This document shows positions 44,737-62,995 of a stretch of 64,000 nucleotides of DNA, piece after piece (position 1 is the first letter of the stretch; each line of letters begins with the position of its first letter). The stretch is taken from assembly GCA_964532425.1 (NCBI GenBank), contig CAZHIA010000001.1:201481-265480 (forward strand), written 5' to 3'. The stretch comes from an uncultured Candidatus Saccharibacteria bacterium. GTDB taxonomy: Bacteria > Patescibacteriota > Doudnabacteria > UBA920. The translations under genes were made by a program, and so were the position numbers. The notes beneath the pieces were generated by a model that ran no database searches, was not told the DNA's origin, and saw only the letters and a list, made by a program, of their open reading frames with translations.

Positions 44737-44855
44737 CAAGACATGTATTTACACAACCAGCATACGTGCTGGCACGCAGCGCGCGTCTCGGATTCTATCC
44801 GGACGCGCGCTTTCTAATTGTTCCCACAAAGGTCACCTTCGTTTATTCAAAATAT

Positions 44856-44886
44856 AAAACCACCCTTCGACAAGCTCAGGGTGGTT
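44856..44886. terminator. conserved bidirectional terminator hairpin AAAACCACCCttcgacaagctcaGGGTGGTT (family copy 1)
   Basis: Sits between convergent genes. Near-identical copies lie at 46025 and 56218. Confidence 0.8.
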
Positions 44887-44918
44887 ATGGAGACGAAAAG
44901 CACATGGCGCCGTTTTGC

Positions 44919-46024: not shown

Positions 46025-46058
46025 AAAACCACCCTAGCTAGAACAAAGGGTGGTTTTT
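46025..46058. terminator. conserved terminator hairpin AAAACCACCCtagctagaacaaaGGGTGGTTTTT (family copy 2)
   Basis: Seen directly after the STAS pair. Confidence 0.8.
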
Positions 46059-46176
46059 ATATATCTTTGATGGACAAAATCGTTTACGAAGATTACGAAG
46101 GTGACCTTTGTAAATTCAAATTAAAAAGGCGGCACTGCGTGAGTGCCGCCGTTCTGTTTTGACGGTCTATAAATAT

Positions 46177-46474: not shown

Positions 46475-46518
46475 ATTATTCTACAAAAAGCTGCATATGC
46501 AGTTTTTTGTAGAATAAT
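46475..46518. repeat. 44-bp palindrome ATTATTCTACAAAAAGCTGCATATGCAGTTTTTTGTAGAATAAT (family copy 2, 1 mismatch)
   Basis: Seen directly. Confidence 0.9.
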
Positions 46519-46638: not shown

Positions 46639-46953
46639 TCAGGCTACGCTGATCTCTGTGAAAAAACCTTTAAGCATTTCTTTCAGAACTGTTTTTCCTT
46701 TGGTTGTTTTAAAATACCTTTCCCTTTTTAGTGCATCAAATTTGTTCGGAAAAGCTTCATAAAAAATTAATTCAAGCGGTCTGCGATTTCGGGTGGAGAT
46801 ATTTTTTCCAGAATTATGATCTTTAACTCTTGTTTTTAAATCTTCAGAGTACCCAATATAAAACAGTCTATCTTTCAGGCTGCGGAGAATATAAACATAG
46901 TAAAATTTTACTGGCATATGTTTGTTTATACTATTTTGGTTATAGTATATCAC
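46639..46953 (-). CDS. GIY-YIG nuclease-family protein (small, URI-domain only)
   Basis: FYYVYILRS..DRLFYIGYSEDLKTRVKDHNSGK....RP..LIFYE motifs. The start is probably the internal Met (MPVKFYYVY). Confidence 0.75.
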   Translation of the reverse strand: MIYYNQNSINKHMPVKFYYVYILRSLKDRLFYIGYSEDLKTRVKDHNSGKNISTRNRRPLELIFYEAFPNKFDALKRERYFKTTKGKTVLKEMLKGFFTEISVA

Positions 46954-47100: not shown

Positions 47101-47137
47101 TGGCTGCGCCATATACCCGAGCAAAGCGAGTGGTATA

Positions 47138-47526
47138 TGGTGGAGATGCCGGGAGTTAAACCCGGGTCCAAAACGTATCGATCTTCCCATTATTCACAAG
47201 ATTAGTCGGTTATTGTACCTCTATGATATCCAACCGACAACGAATCATAAAGGCTGATATACAAGTCTTGTTCCCGGCAGGTATATCGGCCACCGGGCTA
47301 GCAACCTCTAATGAACCCACTAACCCCGAGCGGAGGTGCGCGCGGGAGTGAGGTAACAACCTAAAGTTAGGCCATTACAGGTGCGAGGTCGGCGTTTTGA
47401 AACGCGGCCACTACCTTTTGCCAGGAATTGGCATTTGTTGGTTGATCGCAGGATTTTCGAGGTCAGCAATCGTGCTCGTCTTGCATATGAAAAGATGTCA
47501 AAGTTCTGTCAAAAACCGTCATCCCC
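47138..47526 (-). ncRNA. ssrA: tmRNA (SsrA), one-piece
   Basis: On the minus strand the 5' end is GGGGAUGACGG and the 3' end is GGACCCGGGUUUAACUCCCGGCAUCUCCACCA. The 7-bp acceptor stem has a G3-U pair (alanine identity). A T-arm with a 7-nt loop is followed by ACCA. An internal tag-like frame follows a UAGUG context, analogous to E. coli UAGUC-GCA: GCC GCG UUU CAA AAC GCC GAC CUC GCA CCU GUA AUG GCC UAA (AAFQNADLAPVMA*). Confidence 0.7.
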
Positions 47527-47823
47527 ATAAAAAACTTCCAGAGGATAGTCCTGTACCCGACTCAAAGGAGTGGTATCAGGGCATCCCCGTGGATAATACT
47601 GTAGCATAAATTTTCCGTCAGGTCAATAAATTGGGTAAAAGACGACTTTTATATGCGCTAATTTATGGCTTATATAAGCCATAAATATATATTAATATTG
47701 ACAATATGACTAAAATGTTATATAATATACGGATACTTTCCAAGTATCAAAAAGGCTTTGCTGTGTGCCTTAACCAAACACTTCACGGCTCTTTATTGAG
47801 CTTTCAAAGGAGGTTCATTCCCA

Positions 47824-48413
47824 TGAATGAACAGATTTTTGACACCATCACGGTCGAATTTGATATCCTGTATCATGCATCGATCGAGCTGAGTGAGAAT
47901 GGAACATTTTCCATCACTCAGAAGTGCCAAGACGACCACGCCACGGCCAAAATCGCTAACAAGGACATCGAAGCTCTTGAGGCAGCTCTTCGGGAGGGTT
48001 TTAGAAACCCTAAAAACCGGCATGCGATTCACAGCATCTCGATCACGTTCAACAAGATGCGGCTCCCTCGGATGCAGATGTATGTCCCGGACAGTCAGGA
48101 CGAAAACGGTTTTCGGCAAGGGCTCGGGGTGCATGGCTTCGATGGGTTTACATTCATTTCTGATTGTGACCCGAAGTCAAAGCTGGTCACGATTATGATC
48201 CATCCGCACCAGATCACCGACGCCGACAAGACCTACGAGCAAGTTTTTAAGGCCTTCGTTGGCTTTGCGAGAAAGACTGTGCAGTTTGCGCGGAGTGGCG
48301 ACGCGATTACTAACCTTATTCGCGCGCTGCGCAAGCAGCCGACGGATGAAGGCTACATCTCCCGGGCCATTCACACGGCCTACGGCGAGATGAGCAAGCA
48401 GGCTCGCTACTAG
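47824..48413 (+). CDS. hypothetical protein
   Basis: Start at the internal ATG with an AAGGAGG SD (MNEQIFDTITVEF...). Confidence 0.5.
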
Positions 48414-48462
48414 TCGCGCAGAAGTGTACTAAGGGAATTTGGACCACACCGGGAGGGTGTAA

Positions 48463-48645
48463 ATGAAGCTATTTCTGCTCGTTTTTGAAGACAACCAGCT
48501 GGAGCTGGTTGACGCCGGGTGCATTTACACTTCTCCGGAAGTCGCGGAGGGTGTGAGAGTTGTCCGTCAGGGAATGTGGCCGGATCGGACGCTTGTCGTC
48601 CGGCCTATGGATGCCGACACGCGGAAGAGTTTCGCCGCGGTTTAG
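48463..48645 (+). CDS. small hypothetical protein
   Basis: 60-aa ORF with a GGGAGGG SD. Confidence 0.4.
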   Translation: MKLFLLVFEDNQLELVDAGCIYTSPEVAEGVRVVRQGMWPDRTLVVRPMDADTRKSFAAV

Positions 48646-48701
48646 TCGGCCAAACCAAAAAGAGGGAAGATGAATCGAGCGTTGTCCTGTGACGACGCGC
48701 A

Positions 48702-48744
48702 CTGCCGCCAAGACATCTTCGGATGTTGAGGCGGCTTTGTTTTG
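48702..48744. terminator. repeated terminator hairpin CTGCCGCCAAGACATCTTCGGATGTTGAGGCGGCTTTGTTTT (copy 1)
   Basis: An identical 40-nt copy lies at 49645..49688. Confidence 0.85.
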
Positions 48745-48824
48745 TCCGCTTACAATATAAAAACCGCCACAACACCCAAGACTTCGGGTGCGGGCGGTGT
48801 TTGATGAGCGACCAGGCTGCTCGG

Positions 48825-49142
48825 CTACTTCCGTTCCCAAACAACGGAATTCCAACCGGGCTTCCAGTTCGGTTTGTTGGGCACGAACTTTTTGACCGGC
48901 AGATCCCGCAAGCAGGGGAACTGATTGGTATCTGCCAGCGTTTCGGGATTGGCTTCGATGAATACCCGGATGAGCTTGATGTCGTTGGTGGATACGCCGT
49001 TCGACCAGGATCCTTTCGCGGCGATGGCTGCCGCCATCTGTTCCACATCCCTCCAGTCTAACGGCGGGGCGAGATTGATTTGGGCAAGCTGGACGCTGTC
49101 TTGCTTACCCACCGAGCCTTCGAGGCTCATTAAGCAGTACAT
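48825..49142 (-). CDS. hypothetical protein
   Basis: Start at the internal ATG (MYCLMSLEG..) with a GGGAGGAAG SD. A terminator lies at 48762-48806. Confidence 0.45.
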   Translation of the reverse strand: MYCLMSLEGSVGKQDSVQLAQINLAPPLDWRDVEQMAAAIAAKGSWSNGVSTNDIKLIRVFIEANPETLADTNQFPCLRDLPVKKFVPNKPNWKPGWNSVVWERK

Positions 49143-49294
49143 TCTAACTTCCTCCCTACTTGTGATGTTGGAACACACATAAAGATGCCATGTTTATGGG
49201 GTATTGTCAATTCAGCGTAGGCTGCATGCAATTGACAAATACCATAGAAGAGTGGTATTTTTGTTTGTTAGTGAACAACCCAAAGGAGACCAAA

Positions 49295-49603
49295 ATGAAA
49301 GTGCAAGTAGTTTCGTGGAGAGGCTATGCCAGCACCATGGATTTCATTCATGGTATGAGGCAAACTTTTACAGGGTTGCTTGTGTCAGGTGACACAACAC
49401 TCTTAATCACTTCAGTCGACGGGCTGGGACTTCAAGCCGCACGCCTCAACGAGAAAGAATTAGAGTACAAAGTTGAAGGTGAGGTGGAAGTTTCCGAAGA
49501 ATTTGTCCGGCGAGCGGAGGCCTTTGCGGCAGCCAAAGACGAACTGGGCACGCACGCACAAGAATTTAAGGCACTCGTCCCCAAAGGGGCCGGAACACTC
49601 TGA
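49295..49603 (+). CDS. hypothetical protein
   Basis: Start at the internal ATG (MKVQVVSWRG..) with an AAAGGAGA SD. Confidence 0.45.
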   Translation: MKVQVVSWRGYASTMDFIHGMRQTFTGLLVSGDTTLLITSVDGLGLQAARLNEKELEYKVEGEVEVSEEFVRRAEAFAAAKDELGTHAQEFKALVPKGAGTL

Positions 49604-49644
49604 AACGTTTGCACAATCTGAGTGCAGAACGGTCATCTTCTATA

Positions 49645-49688
49645 CTGCCGCCAAGACATCTTCGGATGTTGAGGCGGCTTTGTTTTTG
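49645..49688. terminator. repeated terminator hairpin (copy 2, identical to 48702..48744)
   Basis: Seen directly. Confidence 0.85.
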
Positions 49689-49769
49689 CTTATGTAATGA
49701 GACGTACTGAATACAATAGAGTAACTTTAAGCCGAAATGGTATAATACCATTGCTTAATTATAGTAAAG

Positions 49770-50657
49770 ATGCAACACGAACTTAGGACCTATTCTCCAT
49801 TTGAAAGCGAAAAGGGCAATAGCGGGAGATATAACCCCTTATACGAGTCTGTCCAAATTTCATCGTATGAAGGGTATATTGCAAACCCCGACCGCCAAGT
49901 GGCTTGTTTTTCCCTGGAAGCGGAAATGCAGGCAAAAGGGTTTGAAACCACGGCCATCGGCAATCAAACCGGAATTTTCAGGGTATTTAAAAATAAGAGA
50001 CTTTTTGGGTTGGCCCAAATGACTTTTGACAATACGGCCAAGTCCCATGGTGTGTACTTGCGTTTTATCGATCCGGACGGAACGTTCCATAAGCAGTCGG
50101 TAATCTTAAACCCCAAAGAGTATGACAAGGACGACTTTGAAAACATCCCGCTCGCAGATGCCATAGAGGGCATGACCCAATATTCCGAAGCTCGGCAAAA
50201 AGCATTCGAAGCTTACAAGGCGTCTTTAATAGAAGCGGTCAATAAGGGAAAGCGAAGCGAAAAATATGAAAGCTGGTTCAAAGTTGAACAATATATAACA
50301 AATGAGAACCTAATTTTTTACCGGCTTATAGATTCCATAGGAGGGGAGCTGAGAGATTTTCCTCACTGCACCAATCGGGTCAACCATGACCGTTTGAATA
50401 CGTTAATCGCACATTGGATGGACTTGGACATAGACGATACTCAGTTTGCGCGATCGCTCTTGAAGGACCCAAAGAGCGGGGACTTCCTGTACCCGGAAGA
50501 CTACGAAAAAGTCATACTCAATGACCTTGCGAAAGACGGCGATGACGAAACCGTGAGAGACTTACGCGCCTTCCTGGGCCATGCTTTCCAATACAGACAC
50601 ATTGGACGAATAATCCATACAATTGAGCATAGCCCATACTTTCAAAAATCAACATAG
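49770..50657 (+). CDS. hypothetical protein
   Basis: 295-aa ORF with a terminator hairpin at 50668-50700. Confidence 0.5.
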   Translation: MQHELRTYSPFESEKGNSGRYNPLYESVQISSYEGYIANPDRQVACFSLEAEMQAKGFETTAIGNQTGIFRVFKNKRLFGLAQMTFDNTAKSHGVYLRFIDPDGTFHKQSVILNPKEYDKDDFENIPLADAIEGMTQYSEARQKAFEAYKASLIEAVNKGKRSEKYESWFKVEQYITNENLIFYRLIDSIGGELRDFPHCTNRVNHDRLNTLIAHWMDLDIDDTQFARSLLKDPKSGDFLYPEDYEKVILNDLAKDGDDETVRDLRAFLGHAFQYRHIGRIIHTIEHSPYFQKST

Positions 50658-50812
50658 AAACCATTCGAAAACCGCTAGCCCTCCGCCAGCGGTTATATGT
50701 AAAAGAGGAACTGACACCTTGTTTGTTTATTAGAATATAGTACCGGAGGCTTCTGCTGGTGAATACATAGTCCTTTGTAGAATATCAAAATTTACAAAGA
50801 TTATCTTTGTGT

Positions 50813-50851
50813 ATGGGGGACTGAAGGAGTAAGTTTGAGATTTCTGCTATT
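50813..50851. repeat. direct repeat ATGGGGGACTGAAGGAGTAAGTTTGAGATTTCTGCTATT (left copy)
   Basis: Its partner lies at 57705..57747, with a 17-nt identical core GGACTGAAGGAGTAAG plus extended similarity. The pair brackets the low-GC island. Confidence 0.7.
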
Positions 50852-51074
50852 TTTGAAACCGCGCTCTAGGGCGACTTTGTTTTGCAAAGGTCCCCACGCA
50901 ATGGTCACCTTGGTATACCTTGGTATATGATTTGGTCGTTCGGAAAAGAAATAATAAACTATTTCAATAATTTCAATAGCAATAAATAAGTCTTCATGCG
51001 CCTTATTTATTTATACTTGTTAAATAAGCCAAAAAATGGCATACTATCTGTGTAAATTACTATAGCCAACAATA

Positions 51075-53498
51075 ATGTTGAAGATCTATCTAAAACAAGA
51101 CTGGGATTATCCATCCAATTACGATCCCAATACTAACCCCGGACACTTCGCTGGAAGAGATAAAGAGAAGAAAGAATTAGTCGATGAATTCCTGCGTAAA
51201 GATAACGGTAGTATTTTAATTAGCGGCGCAAGAGGTGTCGGTAAAACCTCTTTAGTTTACTACGCATTAAAAGAGTCTCAAGTAAGAAATACAAATATTA
51301 TTCCTATTGTCCTTAATGCATCTCAATTAGAGCTCCATACTTACCAGGTAACTACTAAGGATAAGGATTTGCCTTATGTTATTATAGAAAACCTGATCAG
51401 AAGACTATACGGGTATTTTCAGACAGATGGTACTAAAGTAGAAATTAGTAACAAAAATTATCAAAAGTTAGGCAACCTTTACAAGAAAGCCACGGCTAAA
51501 GAATATAGTCACTCTGAGCGATATGGAAACAAGGATGAATCTGTTGACGAAAATACCGTTGAAGAAACAAATACAGCTGAATCTACTTTCGATAAAAAAT
51601 CTCTTATTAACCTATTTTACTTAATAGGCATTTATACTCTATTTGCTGATCAATATTTTAATATAGAATATTGGAACAAAATAATTGGCATAACCTTTTT
51701 ATTTATACCCACATTTAGTTATAAATATCTATTTAAATCTGTTAAAAAGAACTTAAGTAAACTTAGCAAATCTAATTCCGCAGAAGATTTATACAAGGAA
51801 GATAATTCTTTGGGCAATCTTGAATATGAACTGAATTCTCTACTAAAAGAGTTATGCAAAGAAGGCAAAAAAGTCATTTTTGTCATTGACGAACTGGATA
51901 AGTTGGAAGATTCTCAAGAGTCAGAATCTAAAAAAGTATTTGAAATTATTAAAACTTTTAAGAATCTTTTTACTTTATCTTCTGCTTTGTTTGTTTTTAT
52001 TACTAGTGATATTTCATATAATACTGTAATGGCAACGAGAGCAGAACGTAGAATGTATTACACTTTATTTACTAATCGAATCTTTTTAAATCGGCCAGCG
52101 TATACTGACTTGGTTAAATATCTTAAAGGTATTGTAGATTATGTTGACAATAGTTTAACCAAAGATCGACCAGAGTTTACAGCCTTAGAGCAAAAGGATA
52201 GAGAGAAATTAAATGGTCTCTTCAATCATTTATGTTATGAAGCAAAAGGAGACTATTTTGAGCTATCTTTTGTTATTAGAGACTACATTAATGATTACAG
52301 TACAGAAGGCGAAAAACAACCAATAATCAATCTTGAGGACGATAAATACTTCGGCTTTGATGATAGGCTGAAAGCTAAACTACAAATAGTAGTAGCTCAA
52401 ATATACGATATAAATAAAAATCCAGTCCAATCACGTTGGCATGAGAATGATGGAATACTATCACAGCTTTATGGTTTCTTTGAGCGTAATCTCGCCAAAG
52501 GAACTTTTAGAATTAACCAGAAAACTGAAAATCAGTTAATAAAAGATGATTTAATCACTTACCTAAAAAGATTAGAAATTATTAAACTTCTAAAAAAAGA
52601 ACCGGAACAAGAAAATTCGGAACCAGACGTTGTCCATGTTTATCAATGGACAAATAACATTCCTGGAGAAAAAAGCATTCCAGATATTCCCGAAGCTCCA
52701 AATACTTTATTTAATGAAGAGCAAGCTTTTATTAATATCGCTAAGAAATACGTTCAATTAATTAACGATATTGATGACTTGGAAACCGATGCTAAAAATG
52801 TTGCTGAAGGAAAGTTTGAAAGAGGATCCTATGATTTTGAAACTGGAATAATTCAAACCCGTGATGCCAGCTCCATAACTGGTATTAATGCCTTTAACTT
52901 TTTTGAAAAATACGATGACTATATTTCCGGATTACTTGATTCTAAGCCCGAACATATTAATAAAGCAGATTTAAAGAATTTCACTAAGGAATTTGAAGAA
53001 GAGTTAAACAAGATTAAAGAGGCTACACTAAATATATTTAAAAATCTACTAATTAAAGTATTTAACTCTACAGGTTTTCAACATGGATTTGCCACTTTAC
53101 CCGAAGACGGCTCATTATTCACAAGCCTGAATGACTTAAGGACCGAAGTTGTTAATAAAGGAGTTCCACATTTTGTAGTATATAACTTAGACCCTGAGAA
53201 ATCTAAGCAGCTTTTAGTTACTCAAAATATAGACCTGAATATTTTGAGTAATGAAACTATAAAGTTACTGGATAAAAATTTATCGTATAGAATACTCAAC
53301 ATTCAAACTAATTCAGCACTAGACTACTCAAATAAAAATAAGTACAAAGATCAAAAGACTGAAACTACTAAAGGCAAAAGTAGAGTAACCGAGTTTACAA
53401 AAACGTCCGATTCATTTATTAACCTTGTAGCTAATAATGATTTATCAGTTTATCCTGAAATGCTAAAATCTGTTCATGATTGGTTTAATAGTAAGTAA
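51075..53498 (+). CDS. KAP-family P-loop NTPase (STAND-like, PifA-like) with membrane hairpin inserted between Walker A and B, plus large unknown C-terminal region
   Basis: FAGRDKEKKEL..x..ILISGARGVGKTSL Walker A, then two hydrophobic helices (LINLFYLIGIYTLFADQYF, IIGITFLFIPTFSYKYLF), then Walker B VIFVIDELDKLED. About 30% GC, against about 55% for the window. Confidence 0.65.
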   Translation: MLKIYLKQDWDYPSNYDPNTNPGHFAGRDKEKKELVDEFLRKDNGSILISGARGVGKTSLVYYALKESQVRNTNIIPIVLNASQLELHTYQVTTKDKDLPYVIIENLIRRLYGYFQTDGTKVEISNKNYQKLGNLYKKATAKEYSHSERYGNKDESVDENTVEETNTAESTFDKKSLINLFYLIGIYTLFADQYFNIEYWNKIIGITFLFIPTFSYKYLFKSVKKNLSKLSKSNSAEDLYKEDNSLGNLEYELNSLLKELCKEGKKVIFVIDELDKLEDSQESESKKVFEIIKTFKNLFTLSSALFVFITSDISYNTVMATRAERRMYYTLFTNRIFLNRPAYTDLVKYLKGIVDYVDNSLTKDRPEFTALEQKDREKLNGLFNHLCYEAKGDYFELSFVIRDYINDYSTEGEKQPIINLEDDKYFGFDDRLKAKLQIVVAQIYDINKNPVQSRWHENDGILSQLYGFFERNLAKGTFRINQKTENQLIKDDLITYLKRLEIIKLLKKEPEQENSEPDVVHVYQWTNNIPGEKSIPDIPEAPNTLFNEEQAFINIAKKYVQLINDIDDLETDAKNVAEGKFERGSYDFETGIIQTRDASSITGINAFNFFEKYDDYISGLLDSKPEHINKADLKNFTKEFEEELNKIKEATLNIFKNLLIKVFNSTGFQHGFATLPEDGSLFTSLNDLRTEVVNKGVPHFVVYNLDPEKSKQLLVTQNIDLNILSNETIKLLDKNLSYRILNIQTNSALDYSNKNKYKDQKTETTKGKSRVTEFTKTSDSFINLVANNDLSVYPEMLKSVHDWFNSK

Positions 53499-53585
53499 AG
53501 TTTACCGAATGCGTGGTACTAGAGGCTTTGAATTTGGCAAACTATTTTGCTCTAAATAAGGCATTTTTGGGCAAATAATATCAAT

Positions 53586-54245
53586 ATGACCACTAAGGAA
53601 CAAGTGCTTACTTTAATTTTCCAAGCTGTTCCGTCTTTCCAAAATTCAAAGATTTGGAAAGAGCATTTAGAATTTTGGGGAGATACAGAAGAACGAGGCT
53701 TGTACAATGATACGGCTGAATTGGCTAGATATATGGCGGAACAATATAAGGCTGGGGAAACTAAGGAACTTCCAGCATTATTCACATTGATTGAAAAGTT
53801 GTACCTCGAGGGAGATCATTACGTCAAAGAATTGGCAACAATTGGATTCTTAGAAGATCTTCAAGGCCAATTTGGTAATGCTGAAATAAAATCTGAGGTA
53901 TTAGAAAAGTATCTTGGACCTGAATCACAAAAATGGTGGAACTATTTAAATAACATTTGGTCAGGCAAGCTAAAGGAAAAATATCAATGGTTCCATGAGC
54001 GTGTTACTGAAATCGTCAATGCGCTTGACCCCTGGTATTTAATTTCAGGAGGTGCCCCCAAAGATGAATATAGCCAGGAAGTTACCCGAATTATAGCTGG
54101 TCTGAAGGATTGCGAAACGGAAGAGGATGCAAGGCAGCTTGTACTTAAACATTTAGGTGGCGAAAACAGTAGCAAAGAAGCTTGCGCCAAGATTGCCCAG
54201 CAGGTTTTCAAAATTTGGGAACAAATATTATTTTCCAAGGAATAA
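53586..54245 (+). CDS. hypothetical protein (island gene 2)
   Basis: 219-aa ORF, low GC. Confidence 0.5.
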   Translation: MTTKEQVLTLIFQAVPSFQNSKIWKEHLEFWGDTEERGLYNDTAELARYMAEQYKAGETKELPALFTLIEKLYLEGDHYVKELATIGFLEDLQGQFGNAEIKSEVLEKYLGPESQKWWNYLNNIWSGKLKEKYQWFHERVTEIVNALDPWYLISGGAPKDEYSQEVTRIIAGLKDCETEEDARQLVLKHLGGENSSKEACAKIAQQVFKIWEQILFSKE

Positions 54246-54249
54246 TTGT

Positions 54250-55176
54250 ATGTGGCCATTTAAGAAAGAAAATAAAAAATTCATGCTGCTTCAATCGGAA
54301 AAAGAAGGCAGGCCGGTTTGGATAACTGTCGATGGCAGCTTGAAAAATTTAGCAAAAAAAGATGAAACTCCCTGGTGTCTTTGGCTTGGAATACAAATTG
54401 AATCCCAAAAAGGATTACCGGACGAAAAGGAAGCAAAAGAGTTGAATGATTTTGAGGATGAAATTCAGAATAAATTATCAAAAATTGGTAAAATTCATTT
54501 TGTTCTTAGAACTACCTGGAACGGCCATCGGGACTTGTATTTTTACTTAAGTAAGGCAAAAGAATCCCATGAACTCCTATTGGGTATTACAAATTTACCA
54601 AAACCGCCGAAACAATTTCAATATGAAATTTCAAAAGACCCAAATTGGCAATCTGTTAATTGGGTATTTGAGCAACTAGATAAACAGCCTAAATCAGACA
54701 ATCCGAAAGATGAGAATAGTGTGACTTTGTTTGCTTTCAACAGCAATGAGAAACTGAAATCTCTTGCATATAGGGCTTTGAATGATGCAATAGAATTTAT
54801 GAAGAAAGATGGAAAATTTAACCCTTTCTGTTTAACAGAAAAAGAACTTTGGCGTCCAAAGTCCATTGGCGTTAATGAAAATATTCAAGAAATAGAAAAA
54901 CACATTGGTGTCTTACAAGACGAAACCATTGCTGTTTACTGCCATAGTGGTACAATCGGCATTCCGCCTTTTGGTAAAGAGGTAAACTGGCCGACACAGT
55001 TTGCAATATTTGTAAAAGCTTATGATAAAAACGAAGATAAAGGGTACTTGATTTTTCAGATGTATCGTCCAAGGACTGAAGCGGAAGGATTTGCTATATT
55101 AGGAAATACCACAATAGCACCAACTCCTAATATTTTTATTCATAGCTGTTTTCACGAAGGTGGCCTTTGCAAGTAA
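54250..55176 (+). CDS. hypothetical protein (island gene 3)
   Basis: Start at the ATG of MWPFKKENKK... 308 aa, low GC. Confidence 0.5.
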   Translation: MWPFKKENKKFMLLQSEKEGRPVWITVDGSLKNLAKKDETPWCLWLGIQIESQKGLPDEKEAKELNDFEDEIQNKLSKIGKIHFVLRTTWNGHRDLYFYLSKAKESHELLLGITNLPKPPKQFQYEISKDPNWQSVNWVFEQLDKQPKSDNPKDENSVTLFAFNSNEKLKSLAYRALNDAIEFMKKDGKFNPFCLTEKELWRPKSIGVNENIQEIEKHIGVLQDETIAVYCHSGTIGIPPFGKEVNWPTQFAIFVKAYDKNEDKGYLIFQMYRPRTEAEGFAILGNTTIAPTPNIFIHSCFHEGGLCK

Positions 55177-55747
55177 TTTGGAAAAACGAATGAAAAGAAG
55201 AGGGCATCTGTGGTTGCGGATTTCAGAAGAATCTAATGCCTTAGATAATCTCCAAAAAGCATATTCATTTATCATTCAAACCCATTCTGATGAGAATGCT
55301 TGGAAATGGGTTATATTAAGTATCCACTCCGCTTTATTCAGTTTTGCTATATGCGCTTTAAAAGGTACAAGTACTATAAATGTAACTATTCAGACAAAAA
55401 AAGGTGAGAGATTGATTAGTTTTCCTGAAGCGATCGAAATGGTACAGGACGAGAATCGGATGAGAATGACCGTGATGAGTAAGCATCTCCAGTTAACAGA
55501 TGACGAAAAGCGCTCGATAGATAGGCTGCATACAGAATTTCGAAATGAATTAGAACATTACATACCTAAATTATGGGTAATTGAAGTTCCCATGCTGCCG
55601 AAGATGGTTACTCACTGCTTGGATGTAATTAGATTTTTAGCTATTGAGTCAGGTAATTACGATCATTTTAGTGGCTACCAAAAACGAAAAATCAAATCAC
55701 TGATTTTCCAAAGTAAGAAATTTCTTACAAAGATGACCTTCGTTTAA
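55160..55747 (+). CDS. hypothetical protein (island gene 4)
   Basis: 195-aa ORF overlapping the previous stop. The true start may be the internal Met (MKRRGHLWL). Confidence 0.4.
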   Translation: MAFASNLEKRMKRRGHLWLRISEESNALDNLQKAYSFIIQTHSDENAWKWVILSIHSALFSFAICALKGTSTINVTIQTKKGERLISFPEAIEMVQDENRMRMTVMSKHLQLTDDEKRSIDRLHTEFRNELEHYIPKLWVIEVPMLPKMVTHCLDVIRFLAIESGNYDHFSGYQKRKIKSLIFQSKKFLTKMTFV

Positions 55748-55826
55748 ATACCTGTTTCTACAGGTATTTTCATTTAGCATGGTATTATTATAGGAGGAGT
55801 GCTACCTATAATTTGGTAATAGATAC

Positions 55827-56150
55827 ATGCTCAGGTTTTTAAAAACTCTCCATACTGTTATCTGGGTAATAATGGCCTCTGCCAATTTTTTGGCTTTTTA
55901 TTTTGCCTACATCGGCAGATTTGATGCCTGGTTTTGGGTACCCTGCTTACTCATAGTGGGTGAGAGCATAATAGTAGCCATGAACGGATGGCACTGCCCC
56001 ATAACCCCGATTGCGGCGAAGTACACGAAAGACCGAAATCCAAACTTTGATATTTATTTGCCTCAATGGTTAGCCGAATACAATGTCCGAATCTTTGGCA
56101 TACTCATAGTCTTGGAAATCATTATTGTTCTGGCCAAAAGATATAGGTAA
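55827..56150 (+). CDS. small membrane protein (DUF2784-like), island gene 5
   Basis: Two to three TM helices and a GWHCPITP motif. Confidence 0.5.
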   Translation: MLRFLKTLHTVIWVIMASANFLAFYFAYIGRFDAWFWVPCLLIVGESIIVAMNGWHCPITPIAAKYTKDRNPNFDIYLPQWLAEYNVRIFGILIVLEIIIVLAKRYR

Positions 56151-56180
56151 AAAGTACAAAAAGGTACCTGACACCATTTT

Positions 56181-56212
56181 GTTCCCGGATTTAACTCCCG
56201 GCATCTCAACCG
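56181..56212 (+). repeat. partial copy of the tmRNA 3' end (T-arm + acceptor 3' strand), inverted relative to ssrA
   Basis: gttcccggatttaactcccggcatctcaaccg matches ggacccgggtttaactcccggcatctccacca (the ssrA 3' end) at 27 of 32 positions. Confidence 0.75.
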
Positions 56213-56217
56213 TATAT

Positions 56218-56252
56218 GAAAACCACCCTTCGACTAGTTCAGGGTGGTTTTG
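56218..56252. terminator. conserved terminator hairpin AAAACCACCCttcgactagttcaGGGTGGTTTT (family copy 3)
   Basis: Differs from copy 1 at only 3 loop positions. Confidence 0.8.
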
Positions 56253-56255
56253 TGT

Positions 56256-56864
56256 TTACAAGGCACCGGGTACCTTTTCTGTTCCTTGCTTGGCAACTGC
56301 GAGGAAGACGTATTTGCGGGCCTCCCACTTCTTGCGGTCAGAAATCTCGCGGCTGTCTAAATACTTAAGACATGGACCTCCTAAACTCATTAATTCGGGC
56401 TGCCAGCGGGTGGACATGTAATACATCATCGGCGCTATCACGATTGGGGACTGAGATTTCTTTTTACGAACAAGCAGCTTATTACCTTGGTCTTCGTAGC
56501 CGCCACCCAAAGCCCAAACGAAGACTCCTGGATATTCTTTCAAGATCTCGGGGCAAATGGCGGAAAAAGCCAACCAGTGAATGATGGAAGCCGGGGCCAT
56601 ACCAAAGGCGTCCAGCTCCCTGAGGACCGTTGTGGTAATCATTTCGCGTTCGTTCAAAAATCCTCGAATCTCTACGGTTTCGGTTACATGTCTGCGGTAA
56701 CTATCGTACTTGTCTCTGACCGTTTGGGAAATACAAGTCATCCGTTCCTGGGCATGCGGAGTTTTCCGGTGGGCCGCCCGAAACATTTCTTCAAATGTTT
56801 TGGAGCGGTCAATGTTCACCGTAACCGGCAGATGTATGCCAAAAACTTCCTGTGCCTCAATCAT
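56256..56864 (-). CDS. hypothetical protein
   Basis: 202-aa ORF with normal GC. Confidence 0.5.
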   Translation of the reverse strand: MIEAQEVFGIHLPVTVNIDRSKTFEEMFRAAHRKTPHAQERMTCISQTVRDKYDSYRRHVTETVEIRGFLNEREMITTTVLRELDAFGMAPASIIHWLAFSAICPEILKEYPGVFVWALGGGYEDQGNKLLVRKKKSQSPIVIAPMMYYMSTRWQPELMSLGGPCLKYLDSREISDRKKWEARKYVFLAVAKQGTEKVPGAL

Positions 56865-56977
56865 AAACCCTCCTTAATATGGTTGACTCGAAATCGCTCT
56901 TGCTCCTAAACGGACTCAGCAGGAGTAGGGGTTGCAATAAGGTGTCGTGTGCCTTTTTTGTCCCACACCCATTGCTC

Positions 56978-57019
56978 ATTATTCTAAAAAAGCTGCATAT
57001 GCAGCTTTTTGTAGAATGA
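56978..57019. repeat. 44-bp palindrome family copy 3 (CATTATTCTAAAAAAGCTGCATATGCAGCTTTTTGTAGAATGAT)
   Basis: Seen directly. A TTGACA-N17-TAGACT promoter-like sequence lies about 45 bp downstream. Confidence 0.9.
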
Positions 57020-57121
57020 TAAGATTTTCAATGATTACCTTTGCGTGTCTGTCTTGACAAATTATAGTAGTCATAGTAGACTTTGTAGTCTTATAAAGAT
57101 ATGGAAGTAGGGGGGATTAAA

Positions 57122-57571
57122 GTGGAGGATATTGAAAGAAAGATTGTCCGTCCGGCAACTCGCCGTGACTGGCCGCGATTCGCATATGGTTTGGACAAGG
57201 CTCGAAAACTATTTGTGGCAGACGGAACGGAAGTGTATTTCCGTCATCTGCAAGTGGTGGAAGTCCACCGTCCGGTAACCCGTACTTTCACTAAATGGTG
57301 GGGTCTCAGAAAGTACCAAGAATCGTTCGATGAAATCGAAGAGGCGATATACTTCCAACCATCCGGTAGTGAGACGGCGTCGGACTACTTCTATTTCCGC
57401 TTCTATGAAGAAAAAGTGCTCTTGAAGGACTTGCCGGACGAAACTCTGTTCATTGCGACGGATAAGTTTGTGCGGAGGGGTGGTCGCATTGTAAGGAAGA
57501 AGAAGTCTTGGCTGAAGAAACTTATTTCAGCCCTCACACCCGCACCTGAGCCGGAGATTGTTCCTGCCTAG
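57122..57571 (+). CDS. hypothetical protein
   Basis: GTG start after an AGGGGGG SD. The longer frame starts at 57101. Confidence 0.45.
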   Translation: MEDIERKIVRPATRRDWPRFAYGLDKARKLFVADGTEVYFRHLQVVEVHRPVTRTFTKWWGLRKYQESFDEIEEAIYFQPSGSETASDYFYFRFYEEKVLLKDLPDETLFIATDKFVRRGGRIVRKKKSWLKKLISALTPAPEPEIVPA

Positions 57572-57704
57572 GCCATCAAACACGAATCGTTTAAAGTCTT
57601 TCAAGGCCGGGGGAGTTAGTGGCCTGTTAACCCCTTTCTCATTCGCAAGCGCCCCGCTTGCGAATTTTTATTTGTCAAACAACTGTGGTACCTTTTCCGT
57701 TCAT

Positions 57705-57747
57705 ATGGATGGTGGACTGAAGGAGTAAGGTGGAAATCTCTGTCATT
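57705..57747. repeat. direct repeat ATGGATGGTGGACTGAAGGAGTAAGGTGGAAATCTCTGTCATT (right copy)
   Basis: Partner of 50813..50851. Confidence 0.7.
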
Positions 57748-57796
57748 GACGAATACCAGTTAGTGTGGTATTTTTGACTGTCTAAGGAGGACACAG

Positions 57797-58423
57797 ATGG
57801 AACTGCATTACGATTTGTCTCTCACGCGGATAGCGGATCCCGGCATGTATCAAAGGACTTCCAATTACGATACATTCTTTAATGAGCATTCGCACCCCTC
57901 TCTTCAGGAGATCGACGATTTTCTGGCCGCGGCGTTTGGCTACCGGATGACCGAGGAACATGATTTCGAGAACCGGCTCATGCCGACATCCGCAGCTGCC
58001 GCTGCGCCGAATAATCCCATCGAGCAATACTTCGTGCGAACAGCCATTTTGGCGAGGAATGCGCAACGCAGCGCCCGTCAAGGATTTCAGGCTCCGGCAA
58101 CGGACGAAGCCCGATTGCTCATCGACTATGAAGAGGCGCAAGACCGGAAGTTGAGCGTCTTCGTCGCCATCGGTATCGGGATCAAAAGAGCCGCGGCACT
58201 TATTGAAACCGAAGACCGCTTGCACAAAATGGTCCTCGAGCATCCTGACGGCGGCTTTGCTCTCCTCAAAGAAGTTTGGCAGGAGAACAGAGACGGCATC
58301 CAACAGGAGATCAACGAGCGTGCTGAGCAACTCACCGAGGATGAGGCCAAAACGCTGCTGGCAAAGGCGTTCGGTCTCGACTTCGAGCAGTACAACGAAA
58401 TCTTTTACGAACAGCCGTCTTAG
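57797..58423 (+). CDS. hypothetical protein
   Basis: 208-aa ORF with an AAGGAGG SD. Confidence 0.5.
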   Translation: MELHYDLSLTRIADPGMYQRTSNYDTFFNEHSHPSLQEIDDFLAAAFGYRMTEEHDFENRLMPTSAAAAAPNNPIEQYFVRTAILARNAQRSARQGFQAPATDEARLLIDYEEAQDRKLSVFVAIGIGIKRAAALIETEDRLHKMVLEHPDGGFALLKEVWQENRDGIQQEINERAEQLTEDEAKTLLAKAFGLDFEQYNEIFYEQPS

Positions 58424-58519
58424 GGGCGGCCTGCTGCCAATCGCAGAGCACACAGAACAAAGTGTGCTCTTATTTTATTGCAATTATGTTTGGCCACTTG
58501 AATGACCTTTGAAAATTTA

Positions 58520-58558
58520 AACGCTCGTCCAAGAATTCCAATCTTGGACGAGCGTTTG
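58520..58558. terminator. bidirectional terminator
   Basis: aaacgctcgtccaagaattccaatcttggacgagcgttt, a perfect 14-bp stem. Confidence 0.85.
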
Positions 58559-58572
58559 CGTGTGGTGGCGGG

Positions 58573-58965
58573 TTAGGCCACCTTGAAGTTCCACTGGCCG
58601 TTGTTGTGGACGTGGAGGTAGGAGGGGACGCCGGACTTGCTCGGGACTTGGAATACGATTACGGCGTCGGTCCCTGGGTAGTACTCCACGTTCGAGATGT
58701 AGTGGAAGTCTCCACCGCAGATGAGGTGGTGAGACTCGGCTTGGCGCCTGGACCGCGGACAGTCGTGGGTTACGGTATCGATCCGCACGTGGACTTCACC
58801 GCCATTGTAGTTTACGGCGACGATCGTCCGTGTTCCGCTTGCGGTATTCGGAATATCGAACGACGCAAATTCCAGTCCGCCGGGAAGACTCTCGAGCACA
58901 GTGGCTCGCCTGAGCACTTCTCGCGCTCTGGCAACATCGAAAGAAACGGTTGTGTTTGTGGACAC
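58573..58965 (-). CDS. hypothetical protein
   Basis: 130-aa ORF. Confidence 0.45.
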   Translation of the reverse strand: MSTNTTVSFDVARAREVLRRATVLESLPGGLEFASFDIPNTASGTRTIVAVNYNGGEVHVRIDTVTHDCPRSRRQAESHHLICGGDFHYISNVEYYPGTDAVIVFQVPSKSGVPSYLHVHNNGQWNFKVA

Positions 58966-59451
58966 TTTAGTGCCTCCTTAGAATCCCTCATCCTGTTAGG
59001 GACTGCTTAGTCTATAATAAACAGGGTAGTTTGTCAATGGCTTTTTTAATAAGTTAAGGTCGTTCCAGGACTGGAAAATAACAAATTTCTTAGATAAATA
59101 TAAAGACGCTCTCATTTCGAGAGCGTCTCAATTGCGAGCCATAGCGTTGGGATTCCGACGACGAGCATGGAAGCCGCTATGTGTCTGTTGACTGAACGGG
59201 GTGCGGTGCGGAAAACCATACAGCCTCCGCAGAGAACAAGGAATAATCCGAGCAGCAAAAGAAGCATCTGTCCCTCCTTAACTGATAATGGTAATAAAGT
59301 AGGGAGTTGGCGTCAATAGTTGGATTTTTTTCTTTTGATCGAATTCATTACTAAATACCCCCGAAAAAGTGGTATTTTTGTATATCTTGACATATGCTTA
59401 AAAATATGCTAGAATAATTGTTAAAATCAATTCCAAGTTTAAGGGGGTAGT

Positions 59452-59907
59452 ATGGAAGTCCTCGATTTAACTTTCTGCAAAACGACTCAAGGTGGCAAGT
59501 ACCACCTTGGCCGCGTCGATCTCAATTCGATCGCCGACGAGCAAGTTCGCAGATTCGTCGAAACCCTGGTCCGCACTAAGCAAATCGTGTTCGACTGGGG
59601 GATGGATGTCTTCTGGGTCCACCCTACGCCGTTTGCGATAAACTACGAAACCGGCGCGATTCGCCGGACCGACACCAACGCCGAGATCGGCAACGATGGC
59701 TGGATCCCGTGCGATCCGCTGGACCTGCATTCGGCCCTCTCCTCGGTATTCGAAGGGGAGTGGGGACCGAGTTCGGTGGACAGCATCCTGAGCATGGAAT
59801 GTTCGGGGGTGCGTGTTGACCTCTGCGGCACAAAGACGTACGGCCCAGAGGATCCCAAGGGGTTTATGGAAAGCCTCAGGCGCGAGCTGGTTTCGCAACA
59901 GGGATAG
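59452..59907 (+). CDS. hypothetical protein
   Basis: 151-aa ORF with an AAGGGGG SD. Confidence 0.5.
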   Translation: MEVLDLTFCKTTQGGKYHLGRVDLNSIADEQVRRFVETLVRTKQIVFDWGMDVFWVHPTPFAINYETGAIRRTDTNAEIGNDGWIPCDPLDLHSALSSVFEGEWGPSSVDSILSMECSGVRVDLCGTKTYGPEDPKGFMESLRRELVSQQG

Positions 59908-59916
59908 GAGGGTGTC

Positions 59917-60138
59917 GTGAAATTGTTCGTCTACTGCTTTACTGGCCAAGAGAGCTCCCTCATCTTTACATCGCCGCTCGACTCAGAAGCGATGTGGGCC
60001 TACTTGGCCTCTCAAGACGGGGTGAGCGTCGAAGACGCCAAAGAGCAGTATCGCATGCAGGTCAGGGAGGTAAACCCTGCCGAGACTACTCAGGTAGTGA
60101 ACTTCTACTGCACTGACGGTCTTATTACTCTGAGGTGA
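59917..60138 (+). CDS. small hypothetical protein
   Basis: GTG start with a GGAGGG SD, coupled to the upstream gene. A terminator lies at 60160-60200. Confidence 0.4.
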   Translation: MKLFVYCFTGQESSLIFTSPLDSEAMWAYLASQDGVSVEDAKEQYRMQVREVNPAETTQVVNFYCTDGLITLR

Positions 60139-60261
60139 GGCGGGTGCACGGAAATAGCCTGGAATTCCAGGCAACAACGGTGGCCGTTAACTCGTGCCAC
60201 CGTTCTTTTTATTTATAGGTAAACCGTATAAGATCACAAACATCGTTTTAACCCCACGTCT

Positions 60262-60305
60262 ATTATTCTACAAAAAACTGCATATGCAGTTTTTTGTAGA
60301 ATAAT
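60262..60305. repeat. 44-bp perfect palindrome TATTATTCTACAAAAAACTGCATATGCAGTTTTTTGTAGAATAATGA (family copy 4)
   Basis: Seen directly. Confidence 0.9.
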
Positions 60306-60362
60306 GAACTGATAAATAATAACCGCTCCGAGAAGCTCGGAGCGGTTTTGTGTTTGGCGTGA

Positions 60363-62912: not shown

Positions 62913-62995
62913 ATGAAGCAATCTGTAAGATCAAAACGTAGATTATCTTTATATACTTATTGCCCTTGGGGTTTTTATGAGTCTTAACACAATTT

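Follow-up and report, generated by a model that had tools for sequence, protein, structure and literature searches.

Five co-directional genes on the plus strand (51075..53498 to 55827..56150 in the ORF list) share a block of low GC content in the 64,000-nucleotide stretch of DNA that was analysed, hereafter called the window. The first encodes an 807-residue P-loop NTPase. An earlier note had rightly recognised the run of five genes and had proposed that they form one defence system with undescribed partners. The question raised by this locus is whether this is so, or whether an anti-phage role belongs to the NTPase by itself.

Composition and borders of the low-GC block

The block extends over 50930..56176, with no strand assigned. 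Its GC content is 0.340, to be compared with a mean of 0.517, a standard deviation of 0.017 and a minimum of 0.467 for the other segments of the same length (5.2 kb, n = 194). These values and the composition profiles support horizontal acquisition, as had been suggested. The low-GC island was therefore recovered, in a context of about 52% GC and not 55% as first stated. The GC3 is 0.25 in the NTPase gene, 0.30–0.35 in ORF2–4 and 0.49 in ORF5, and this spread suggests a mosaic. The block is regarded as a horizontally acquired mosaic within a repeat-rich variable region near ssrA. The adjoining genes are ORFans, and no recognisable defence gene was found in this neighbourhood. The gaps separating ORF1 (the NTPase gene), ORF2, ORF3 and ORF4 are 87, 4 and 13 nt, and no terminator is predicted between ORF1 and ORF4. 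With such close spacing, functional coupling in this one genome is possible.

On its right side, the block abuts a degraded copy of the 3' end of the tmRNA and a repeated terminator hairpin, both of which had been correctly noticed. The copy (56177..56216, plus strand) comprises the T-arm and acceptor strand, and 35 of its 40 bases equal those at the end of the tmRNA gene (47134..47173; 88% over 40 nt, inverted pair I3). The reference tmRNA (ssrA) gene lies on the minus strand at 47138..47526, as located by ARAGORN and Rfam RF00023 (124 bits). The terminator-like hairpin (56219..56252, plus strand) belongs to the dispersed family D2, with four copies at 44856, 46025, 56219 and 60317.

Direct repeats of about 38 bp were said to bracket the island. 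The pair exists (D6, plus strand), with a left copy of 42 nt at 50810..50851 and a right copy at 57706..57747 that are identical at 34 of 42 positions (81%) and share an exact core of 16 nt occurring only twice in the window. The bracketing does not hold, as the low-GC block ends 1.5 kb before the right copy, and the limits of the island are thus not marked by D6. Relative to the tmRNA gene, the tmRNA fragment has the opposite orientation and is situated 5' of it, which is incompatible with an attL/attR pair. Att-like borders were rejected on account of the displaced D6 copy and the inverted fragment. No integrase was found.

An 807-residue NTPase with invariant Walker motifs

The first gene (51075..53498, plus strand) encodes a KAP-like/AAA_16 P-loop NTPase, taken as a stand-alone defence candidate from its Pfam match, its relatives, their genomic contexts and its AlphaFold model. 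The FxGR(D/E)...GxxGxGK(T/S) start announced in the earlier note reads FAGRD...GARGVGKTS, and Pfam AAA_16 matches the protein with 35.8 bits, above the gathering score of 32.6. More than 135 full-length relatives were found, and the family, with proteins of about 750–890 residues, is widespread in Bacteria and Archaea. Its members have hydrophobic helices inserted between Walker A and Walker B, both of which are invariant, and end in a conserved region of about 450 residues. Across 45 relatives, no variation was observed at the Walker residues, namely R53, G54, V55, G56, K57 and T58 of Walker A (GARGVGKT, residues 51–58, 51225..51248, plus strand), and D272, E273, D275 and K276 of the Walker B strand and motif (VIFVIDELDKL with the motif DELDK, residues 266–276, 51870..51902, plus strand). 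The core is an ORC/Cdc6-like AAA+/STAND-like ATPase.

Pfam AAA_16 matches 44 of 45 family members. The KAP-family assignment, examined with HMMs, applies to 31 of 45 relatives (Pfam KAP_NTPase, best 5e-14), whereas the window protein matches AAA_16 and gives no KAP_NTPase match at E ≤ 0.1. The PADLOC PifA model yields weak matches in 21 of the 45 (best 6e-8). The window NTPase matches neither the PifA nor the Tmn models, and no family member matches the PADLOC Tmn models or Pfam YobI.

Between the Walker motifs, the earlier note had placed two TM helices. In the AlphaFold model (pLDDT 83.8), helices 174–190 and 198–213 do form a hairpin at this position (residues 174–213, 51594..51713, plus strand), which is a putative membrane anchor. 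By hydropathy, the insert contains at least one clear hydrophobic segment in 44 of 45 relatives, and two in 31. In the window NTPase, the helices reach only a marginal hydrophobicity (19-residue Kyte-Doolittle mean of at most 1.23) and are modelled with only moderate confidence (pLDDT 65–79), so that membrane insertion of this copy is uncertain. The KAP/STAND-like, membrane-inserted character is supported for the family.

The conserved C-terminal region of about 450 residues (356–807, 52140..53495, plus strand) is confidently folded. It consists of a helical/winged-helix-like part followed by an alpha/beta domain (about residues 670–790) with a weak restriction-endonuclease-like fold, in which no conserved catalytic nuclease site was found. 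ORC/Cdc6-type AAA+ and STAND NTPases, including Avs/NLR-like proteins, BrxC and RADAR RdrA, have in common with the window NTPase the FxGR[DE]...GxxGxGKT start, the AAA_16 match, and an ATPase core continued by helical and winged-helix-like elements. Unlike these proteins, the window NTPase contains an insert of about 200 residues with a hydrophobic hairpin between Walker A and B, and is devoid of repeat-type sensor domains (TPR, WD40, LRR) and of a recognisable fused effector domain (nuclease, TIR, protease).

The downstream genes

No motif had initially been assigned to the four ORFs downstream, three of which can now be placed. ORF2 (219 residues, 53586..54245, plus strand) is a DUF7674 protein (Pfam PF24722, E = 3.7e-24). 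ORF3 (308 residues, 54250..55176, plus strand) has an N-terminal DUF695 domain (Pfam PF05117, E = 2.4e-16) and an unassigned C-terminal half. Homology searches with ORF2 and ORF3 each returned the query itself only. ORF4 (185 residues, 55190..55747, plus strand; the start may be at 55160 or 55190) is a stand-alone gene from a large unannotated family, of which the homology search retrieved 914 representatives at E ≤ 1e-3. It has no match in Pfam or the PDB. Its LRNxFEH motif is of the Rx4H, HEPN-like type, with R118 invariant and H123 kept in at least 90% of the sequences. ORF5 (107 residues, 55827..56150, plus strand) has three hydrophobic segments and is doubtful as a gene: it is not called on the identical contig L073, it is absent from a collection of 15 billion proteins, and its single tblastn match falls on a Nostoc plasmid, where nothing is annotated at that place (E = 1e-6). 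Its GC3 is close to host values, and it is probably not part of the low-GC acquisition.

The five genes could be read as one multi-component defence or abortive-infection system (51075..56150), with the NTPase as sensor or motor and ORF2–5 as effectors or partners. This reading draws on the common orientation and short gaps from ORF1 to ORF4 with no predicted terminator, on the single low-GC block that holds all five, and on the Rx4H motif of ORF4, of a kind known from HEPN RNase effectors. However, tblastn detected relatives of ORF2–5 at 0 of 72 loci of NTPase relatives, and ORF1, 2, 3 or 5 at 0 of 80 loci of the ORF4 family, the searches being run with single divergent queries that very remote DUF695 or DUF7674 relatives would escape. 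Neither DUF was ever met in the annotated neighbourhoods of NTPase relatives, and neither occurs twice or more among 122 neighbours scanned with Pfam. At the closest homologue (81% amino acid identity), nucleotide similarity spans 51016..53488 only and stops at the borders of the NTPase gene. The heterogeneous GC3 and the doubtful ORF5 also speak against a common system. Absence of co-occurrence elsewhere had been named in the earlier note as the outcome that would overturn its proposal; this outcome was obtained, and the five-gene reading is thus extremely improbable.

That ORF2–4 make up a separate small module, merely lying beside the NTPase, is very unlikely. ORF4 could be a Rx4H/HEPN-like toxin, for example, and the DUF7674 and/or DUF695 proteins its antidote or immunity. 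The three genes are just 4 and 13 nt apart and alike in GC3, the Rx4H motif is conserved, and a DUF7674 relative on a Rhizobium plasmid is encoded directly downstream of a Fic-family protein, with TA genes around. Against this, no conserved neighbour of the ORF4 family was found among 80 loci, where the best neighbour cluster reaches 5 of 80 and relatives of ORF2 or ORF3 are never present. Since close relatives of ORF2 and of ORF3 could not be detected anywhere, the three genes occur together in this genome alone. ORF2, ORF3, ORF4 and ORF5 are considered independent passengers, perhaps co-transcribed, and not conserved partners.

Genomic contexts and proposed role of the NTPase

Among the genes of the block, a defence signature is confined to the NTPase. 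A HEPN_AbiU2 gene lies directly downstream of its relatives at loci L001–L003. GmrSD and a rolling-circle Rep are on the flanks in L004, and ThsB_TIR and an AlwI R-M system adjoin the gene in L008–L012. The order HsdR-NTPase-HsdS-HsdM, within type I R-M operons, is found in L013/L014 and independently in L020. In a Pfam scan of the 122 neighbours at 17 named-genome loci, the commonest families were N6_Mtase, AAA_21, Methylase_S, HSDR_N, ResIII, AAA_15, SMC_N, HepT, Resolvase, TIR_2 and RmuC. The neighbours differ at every locus. Recurrent adjacency to R-M, TIR, Abi and GmrSD genes is a classical signature of defence genes.

The NTPase might instead be a modular sensor with swappable neighbours, guarding or amplifying the effector or system that adjoins it, be it the surrounding type I R-M, the HEPN_AbiU2 of the closest homologue or, in the window, the Rx4H protein ORF4. 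In two unrelated genomes, it is preceded by hsdR and followed by hsdS-hsdM; it lies directly upstream of HEPN_AbiU2 in the 81% homologue, and three genes upstream of the Rx4H protein in the window. PrrC, within the prrI R-M operon, is a precedent for such a guard or amplifier. For Tmn, synergy with Gabija, Septu and PrrC has been published, with ATP depletion as the link (PMC13001434). This arrangement is nevertheless unlikely, as a HEPN or R-M neighbour is absent from most relatives, neighbour sets vary without pattern, ORF4-family genes are independent of the NTPase across 80 loci, and the HEPN nature of ORF4 is putative.

There is a somewhat greater, still small chance that the NTPase is not immune in function. 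It would then be a membrane-associated ATPase of mobile-element biology or signalling, hitch-hiking with accessory genes in variable regions, and involved for example in exclusion or maintenance of an integrated element or in regulated assembly of a membrane complex. According to later papers, the role first suggested for KAP NTPases was the regulation of membrane-associated complexes. A rolling-circle Rep protein adjoins the relative in L004, resolvases and recombinases occur among the neighbours, and the window NTPase itself lies near ssrA among repeats and ORFans, where no defence gene was recognised. On the other hand, R-M, TIR, Abi and GmrSD neighbours recur irrespective of phylum, the gene even being inserted in type I R-M operons, and the family was found neither on the 2.9 million viral contigs scanned nor in the plasmid collection.

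The most probable reading is that the 807-residue NTPase works by itself, as an anti-phage system made of one protein from the KAP P-loop NTPase class. The anti-phage role envisaged in the earlier note is thus retained for this protein alone, because of defence-island contexts in many phyla and the likeness to published single-gene KAP NTPases with unknown C-terminal regions, which protect against phage (PLoS Biol 2026, PMC13552941). Neither Walker B nor the C-terminal region is dispensable for that defence (PMC13552941). Counting against a defence role here are the missing KAP_NTPase, PifA and Tmn matches of the window protein, the weak hydrophobicity of its inserted helices, its ORFan surroundings, and the absence of the family from the viral contigs and plasmids that were scanned. 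Like the window NTPase, EF_KAP and its metagenomic relatives (PMC13552941) are single polypeptides with a C-terminal region of several hundred residues without known domain, situated in defence or mobile contexts. They are set apart by their descriptions: EF_KAP has one N-terminal TM helix and one in the NTPase domain, whereas the window NTPase has both of its helices between the Walker motifs, and the tails measure 322 and about 450 residues, respectively. Enterococcus KAP genes met in the search (L055, L056) match only residues 32–333 of the NTPase, with 26% identity, and the C-terminal regions are therefore unrelated.

Tmn, reportedly a YobI-family transmembrane NTPase described by Gao et al. 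in 2020, is likewise a single-gene system with an AAA+-like core, two helices that interrupt the P-loop domain after Walker A and before Walker B, and a large cytosolic region for sensing at the C-terminus, sensing by the window NTPase being proposed by analogy. Its arms are ARM/HEAT solenoids, in contrast to the helical/winged-helix-like and restriction-endonuclease-like parts of the window NTPase, and it is plasmid-borne in E. coli, whereas no member of the present family was met on plasmids. Tmn senses the phage protein RIIB and couples ATP turnover to Mg2+ export (PMC13001434). It offers a plausible mechanistic template, in which binding of a trigger sets off ATP turnover, followed by a membrane or ion effect.

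PifA, the F-plasmid protein that excludes phage T7, belongs likewise to the KAP-class P-loop NTPases, is comparable in length (741 residues) and acts alone, as is proposed here. The likeness does not extend beyond the surroundings of the two Walker motifs (hhalign probability 21%; BLASTP E = 8e-4 over 88 residues). PifA is reported to be without TM helices (PMC13001434), and no counterpart of its pifC repressor gene is present at the window NTPase.

By analogy with Tmn, PifA and the EF_KAP-type proteins of 2026, the NTPase is presumed to be oligomeric and to be held at the membrane by the hairpin. Its C-terminal module, with the lid/winged-helix-like helices and degenerate restriction-endonuclease-like domain, would recognise a phage component and thereby switch on ATP turnover. 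This turnover may arrest infection through a membrane or ion-homeostasis effect and not through nucleolysis, since no catalytic nuclease site is conserved. The NTPase gene travels as a single-gene cassette, landing in defence islands across Bacteria and Archaea.

Composition of the low-GC block and co-occurrence of its genes

The low-GC block (50930..56176) has a GC content of 0.340, against a mean of 0.517 (sd 0.017, minimum 0.467) in 194 other windows of equal length. This compositional anomaly is real and strong, and the island proposed in the earlier note stands in this respect. The block contains five co-directional ORFs on the + strand: ORF1, which encodes the NTPase (51075..53498, 807 aa), ORF2 (53586..54245, 219 aa), ORF3 (54250..55176, 308 aa), ORF4 (55190..55747, 185 aa from the ATG or 195 aa from an upstream GTG) and ORF5 (55827..56150, 107 aa). 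Elsewhere the window consists of ordinary chromosomal sequence, with genes for MFS transporters, a PAS-GGDEF-EAL protein, a ClpB-like ATPase and a CDF transporter. A phage origin of the window was rejected, given the presence of such chromosomal genes (MFS, GGDEF-EAL, CDF transporter) and the lack of any megablast match to 50,697 phage records.

The block is surrounded by a lineage-specific ORFan region. Segments 47706-50657 and 56256-64000 comprise about 11 kb of ORFs of near-host GC without Pfam or PHROG matches, of which 49770-50657 and 56256-56864 (-) were checked and proved to be singletons in a collection of 15 billion proteins. The window proteins tested are all singletons at 90% identity, the sole other copy lying on a 100%-identical public contig (L073) from the same organism, and no close relative was found among the GTDB representatives scanned. 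It is therefore impossible to define the borders by comparison with an island-free relative. Further away, region 19956-27965 encodes an 852-aa protein without Pfam match, a ClpB-like protein with additional AAA_16 and nSTAND3 matches at its N-terminus, a fragment of a TrwB/TraG-like coupling protein and a TPR protein. This region could be what remains of a conjugative element, or a further conflict locus.

The five ORFs had been read as a single novel defence system, and a check of their co-occurrence in other genomes had been called for. It was run, and none was found. A tblastn search with ORF2–5 and nine other window neighbours gave zero matches in 72 NTPase loci (≤10 kb of flank each), and the 80 metagenomic loci of the ORF4 family contain no relative of ORF1, 2, 3 or 5; as single divergent queries were used in the tblastn co-occurrence searches, very remote homologues could escape. 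DUF7674 and DUF695 are absent from the annotated neighbourhoods of NTPase relatives, and each is present at most once in a Pfam census of 122 neighbours. As none of the 72 NTPase loci and none of the 80 ORF4-family loci has a co-occurring partner, the five genes are not supported as one system. Genes that share a direction and a low-GC block do not make a system unless their co-occurrence has been tested, and the result here is clearly negative.

The neighbourhoods of the NTPase relatives differ between all lineages. The sets encountered include HEPN_AbiU2; GmrSD with a rolling-circle Rep; radical SAM with NUDIX; ThsB_TIR with an AlwI restriction-modification (R-M) system; and the arrangement HsdR-NTPase-HsdS-HsdM. 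The only DNA similarity to the closest homologue (81% aa identity) extends from 51016 to 53488 of the window, which corresponds to the gene with 59 nt upstream. The NTPase gene behaves as a single-gene cassette. The GC content at third codon positions is 0.25 in the NTPase gene, 0.30–0.35 in ORF2–4 and 0.49 in ORF5, and it ranges from 0.51 to 0.69 in five measured genes outside the block. These differences suggest that the block is a mosaic.

That the downstream ORFs carry no assignable motif proved true only in part, as ORF2 is a divergent DUF7674 protein, ORF3 has a DUF695 domain in its N-terminal half and ORF4 belongs to a family with an Rx4H motif. The C-terminal half of ORF3 has no family match. 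A distant relative of ORF2 is encoded directly 3' of a Fic-family gene amid toxin-antitoxin loci on a Rhizobium plasmid. Word-index homology searches with ORF2 and ORF3 returned only the proteins themselves; tblastn against plasmids yielded two weak DUF7674 matches and none for DUF695. A literature search on DUF695, DUF7674, PF05117 and PF24722 found no papers. ORF5 is not called on contig L073, and its sequence is missing from the protein collection.

The ORF4 family has at least 914 representatives at 50% identity, 180–200 aa in length, and no Pfam model. Its motifs are WKW and LRNxFEHFxPxxW, with R118 invariant and H123 present in at least 90% of 60 members, and the block LRNxFEH fits the Rx4-6H motif of HEPN proteins. 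ORF4 itself has no Pfam match; among the 60 members, a lone HEPN_Apea match (E = 0.043) is not significant. A profile search of the PDB gave nothing relevant, and hhalign against a HEPN_AbiU2 protein returned a probability of 0.1%. ORF4 was therefore not accepted as a proven HEPN protein, the Rx4H motif alone being in favour and the profile tests negative. Judging from the motif, the family may be an undescribed HEPN-like one. No neighbour is conserved in its 80 metagenomic loci. Elsewhere, defence-type neighbours (TIR_2 three times, ThaI, ApeA_NTD1) are mixed with housekeeping genes, all genes in the annotated plasmid contexts are labelled 'hypothetical', and distant relatives occur on 11 IMG/VR contigs. 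The ORF4 relatives are stand-alone genes in variable contexts (loci L076-L155 and L159-L169). ORF2–ORF4 look like independent accessory genes.

Repeats and borders

The region from 43 to 60 kb is rich in dispersed repeat families, which places the low-GC block in a recombination-prone variable region. A near-perfect palindrome of 44 nt, with halves ATTATTCTACAAAAARCTGCAT and ATGCAGYTTTTTGTAGAATAAT, is found at 43542-43585, 46475-46518, 56978-57020 and 60262-60305, and as a partial half-copy at 50760-50784. These four copies lie within 17 kb, whereas chance alone would yield 0.25 half-sites. The sequence at the end of each half, TGTAGAAT, resembles an extended -10 promoter element. The palindromes could be shared operators, divergent promoters, or recombination sites delimiting gene cassettes.

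A second family is a composite dispersed intergenic element made of the motif ACAAAGRTSACCTTCGT and a hairpin. It is found at 44826-44889 (+), 46025-46111 (-) and 55727-55771 (+), with further occurrences at 46540 and 55154; the motif has seven strand-matches at five sites, where chance would give 0.06. The hairpin AAAACCACCC...GGGTGGTTTT follows it at 44826 and 46111, and a different hairpin follows the copy at 55727. One copy of the element overlaps the last codons of ORF4. The third repeat, a perfect 43-nt direct repeat of the terminator-like hairpin ACTGCCGCCAAGACATCTTCGGATGTTGAGGCGGCTTTGTTTT, occupies 48701-48743 and 49644-49686, at a distance of 943 nt. Exactly two repeats of this region coincide with breaks of the public short-read contig: one break point is a copy of the 44-nt palindrome, and contig L073 starts inside the second ACTGCCGCCAAGACATCTTCGGATGTTGAGGCGGCTTTGTTTT copy.

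A one-piece tmRNA gene, 47138..47526 (-), precedes the left edge of the block by 3.5 kb (ARAGORN; Rfam 124 bits). The tmRNA 3'-end fragment described in the earlier note was recovered at the right edge as a 35/40 copy (56177..56216), followed by a hairpin of the four-copy family D2. The orientation of this copy is opposite to that of ssrA, and it is placed on the 5' side of the gene; hence the pair does not constitute attL and attR. An island integrated at ssrA is accordingly not supported, a direct repeat of the ssrA 3' end being absent and the copy inverted. An inversion between the two ssrA ends does not explain the orientation either, as flipping the DNA between inverted repeats keeps them inverted. 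An apparent second ssrA remnant at 46025..46070 was discarded, since the alignment reflects the generic element of motif and hairpin that recurs at 44826..44889.

The direct repeats thought to bracket the island do exist: the D6 pair (50810..50851 and 57706..57747) is identical at 34 of 42 positions, with an exact 16-nt core found at these two places only. Its right copy, however, lies 1.5 kb beyond the block. The D6 repeats were rejected as att sites on account of this position and because a recombinase was not found. No recombinase domain was detected in the ORFs scanned within 47.7-58.4 kb, the Pfam scan having covered only part of the window ORFs, and two tyrosine recombinases used as phmmer queries on 204 ORFs of the window, a weak test, gave no match.

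Two features of the ssrA locus were noted in passing. The tmRNA tag is unusual, with 21 residues (ANSWQKVVAAFQNADLAPVMA) ending in VMA, where LAA or VAA is common. A small low-GC ORF, 46639-46953 (-), lies downstream of the tmRNA 3' end and encodes a GIY-YIG nuclease-like protein (YVYILRS...YIGYSEDLKTRVKDHN) with weak PHROG matches, including a homing endonuclease (E = 0.004). This ORF may represent a small insertion of its own at ssrA.

Family and architecture of the NTPase

More than 135 relatives of the NTPase were retrieved by homology search, mostly full-length (89–100% coverage) and 740–895 aa long, from metagenome-assembled genomes of many bacterial and archaeal phyla; their best annotation is 'P-loop NTPase fold protein'. 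The window NTPase starts with FAGRD...GARGVGKTS and has VIFVIDELDK as Walker B, and it thereby displays the GxxxxGK[ST] and hhhhDE motifs of the KAP family (PF07693). In an alignment of 45 relatives, Walker A R53-T58 and Walker B D272, E273, D275 and K276 are invariant, and D393, L397, W455, N458, R499, E549 and Q712 are conserved in the C-terminal region.

The protein scores above the Pfam gathering threshold for AAA_16, with weaker AAA, AAA_22, ATPase_2 and nSTAND matches, and its core has an ORC/Cdc6/STAND-like fold, as in STAND/AAA_16 proteins. When the 45 members were scanned singly, AAA_16 was matched by 44, KAP_NTPase by 31 of those full-length relatives (best E = 5e-14) and the PADLOC PifA model by 21 (best 6e-8). 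The window NTPase has no match to the KAP_NTPase profile at E ≤ 0.1, and its membership of the KAP family would be by transitive homology only.

An AlphaFold model computed from the alignment of relatives (pLDDT 83.8, pTM 0.73) shows helices 174–190 and 198–213 within an insert of about 200 residues between Walker A and Walker B. By hydropathy, at least one hydrophobic insert segment is present in 44 of the 45 relatives, and two or more in 31. The insert of the window copy is the least hydrophobic of all (maximum 19-residue mean 1.23). The putative transmembrane hairpin inside the P-loop domain is thus a trait of the family that is marginal in the window member. Of the membrane-inserted KAP/STAND NTPase that had been proposed, the Walker motifs, the AAA_16 assignment and the modelled hairpin are borne out, whereas the protein lacks a KAP_NTPase match of its own and its hydropathy is marginal.

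Modelled alone, residues 356–807 fold confidently (pLDDT 90.6, pTM 0.82). The model comprises one part that is helical and winged-helix-like, a bundle of helices and, at the end (about 670–790), an alpha/beta domain. In the family alignment, residues 660–807 contain no D/E column at ≥70% conservation; the conserved positions are L681, F682, R689, S710, K/R711 and Q712. As no acidic residue is conserved there, a canonical nuclease active site is unsupported, and a C-terminal PD-(D/E)xK nuclease was rejected, the lead of a weak restriction-endonuclease-like fold lacking conserved catalytic D...(D/E)xK residues. The terminal domain may be a degenerate endonuclease-like binding module, a structural lead and not a finding.

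The NTPase differs from PifA of the F plasmid. Full-length homology was not observed: BLASTP similarity is limited to the Walker B region, and hhalign of the family profile with F PifA gave a probability of 21% over 48 columns around Walker A. Nor does the window protein match the PADLOC PifA or Tmn models, its sole PADLOC match being mad8 (E = 0.0015). Tmn (PADLOC) and YobI (Pfam) are likewise absent from the profile matches of all 45 members, which distinguishes the family from Tmn at the profile level. The architecture nevertheless appears analogous, given the modelled two-helix insert in the P-loop domain and the single-gene cassette. Tmn is a transmembrane NTPase with two helices inside its P-loop domain, which detects phage RIIB and whose ATP turnover is coupled to Mg2+ export and plasmolysis (PMC13001434); it synergises with ATP-sensing systems (bioRxiv 10.1101/2022.08.21.504612). 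This published work supports the antiphage class of which the NTPase is a candidate member.

Genomic context and putative defence role

The genomic-context evidence for a defence role is strong. At 17 named-genome loci from different phyla, the commonest neighbours within 5 kb are type I R-M subunits, namely N6_Mtase (5), Methylase_S (4), HSDR_N (3) and HsdM_N (3), together with AbiEii/OLD-type ATPases (AAA_21, 5; AAA_15, 3); SMC_N, HepT, resolvases, TIR_2, RmuC and YhcG are also frequent. In two unrelated genomes, type I R-M operons carry an NTPase relative inserted after hsdR and before hsdS-hsdM (L013, 8001-10280, and L014, 7290-9569, in one case; L020, 10001-12223, in the other), a placement that resembles that of PrrC within the prrI operon. 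A 491-aa HEPN_AbiU2 gene directly follows the closest homologue at three loci (L001 6647-8122, also L002 and L003). The GC content of the L001 contig is low along most of its length (0.29–0.40) and about 0.45 at the right end.

Against a defence role, the function would be assigned by context and analogy, the family was not found in the plasmid or viral collections searched, and the window NTPase's own neighbours are ORFans without defence signatures. On balance, the best reading is that the NTPase is a stand-alone KAP-like defence candidate beside unrelated passenger genes, a further member of an already known kind with a putative defence function.

A bolder proposal, which we consider rather unlikely, is that the NTPase belongs to a family of immune sensors, each a single protein, that spans Bacteria and Archaea and is as yet undescribed. 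In this family an ORC/Cdc6-like ATPase, held in the membrane by the inserted hairpin and joined to a catalytically degenerate restriction-endonuclease-like module sensing DNA or protein, would guard restriction systems. The guard role would follow from the repeated insertion in HsdR-X-HsdS-HsdM in two unrelated lineages. Such a guard would fire once a phage disables restriction, much like PrrC.

Should the NTPase prove to be a stand-alone defence protein, a widespread family, whose range includes Chloroflexota, Omnitrophota, Actinomycetes, Patescibacteria, Archaeoglobus, Asgard archaea and Nitrososphaeria, would join the newly recognised membrane-anchored KAP-type antiphage NTPases. Its well-folded and conserved C-terminal module could then be dissected as a sensor or an effector.
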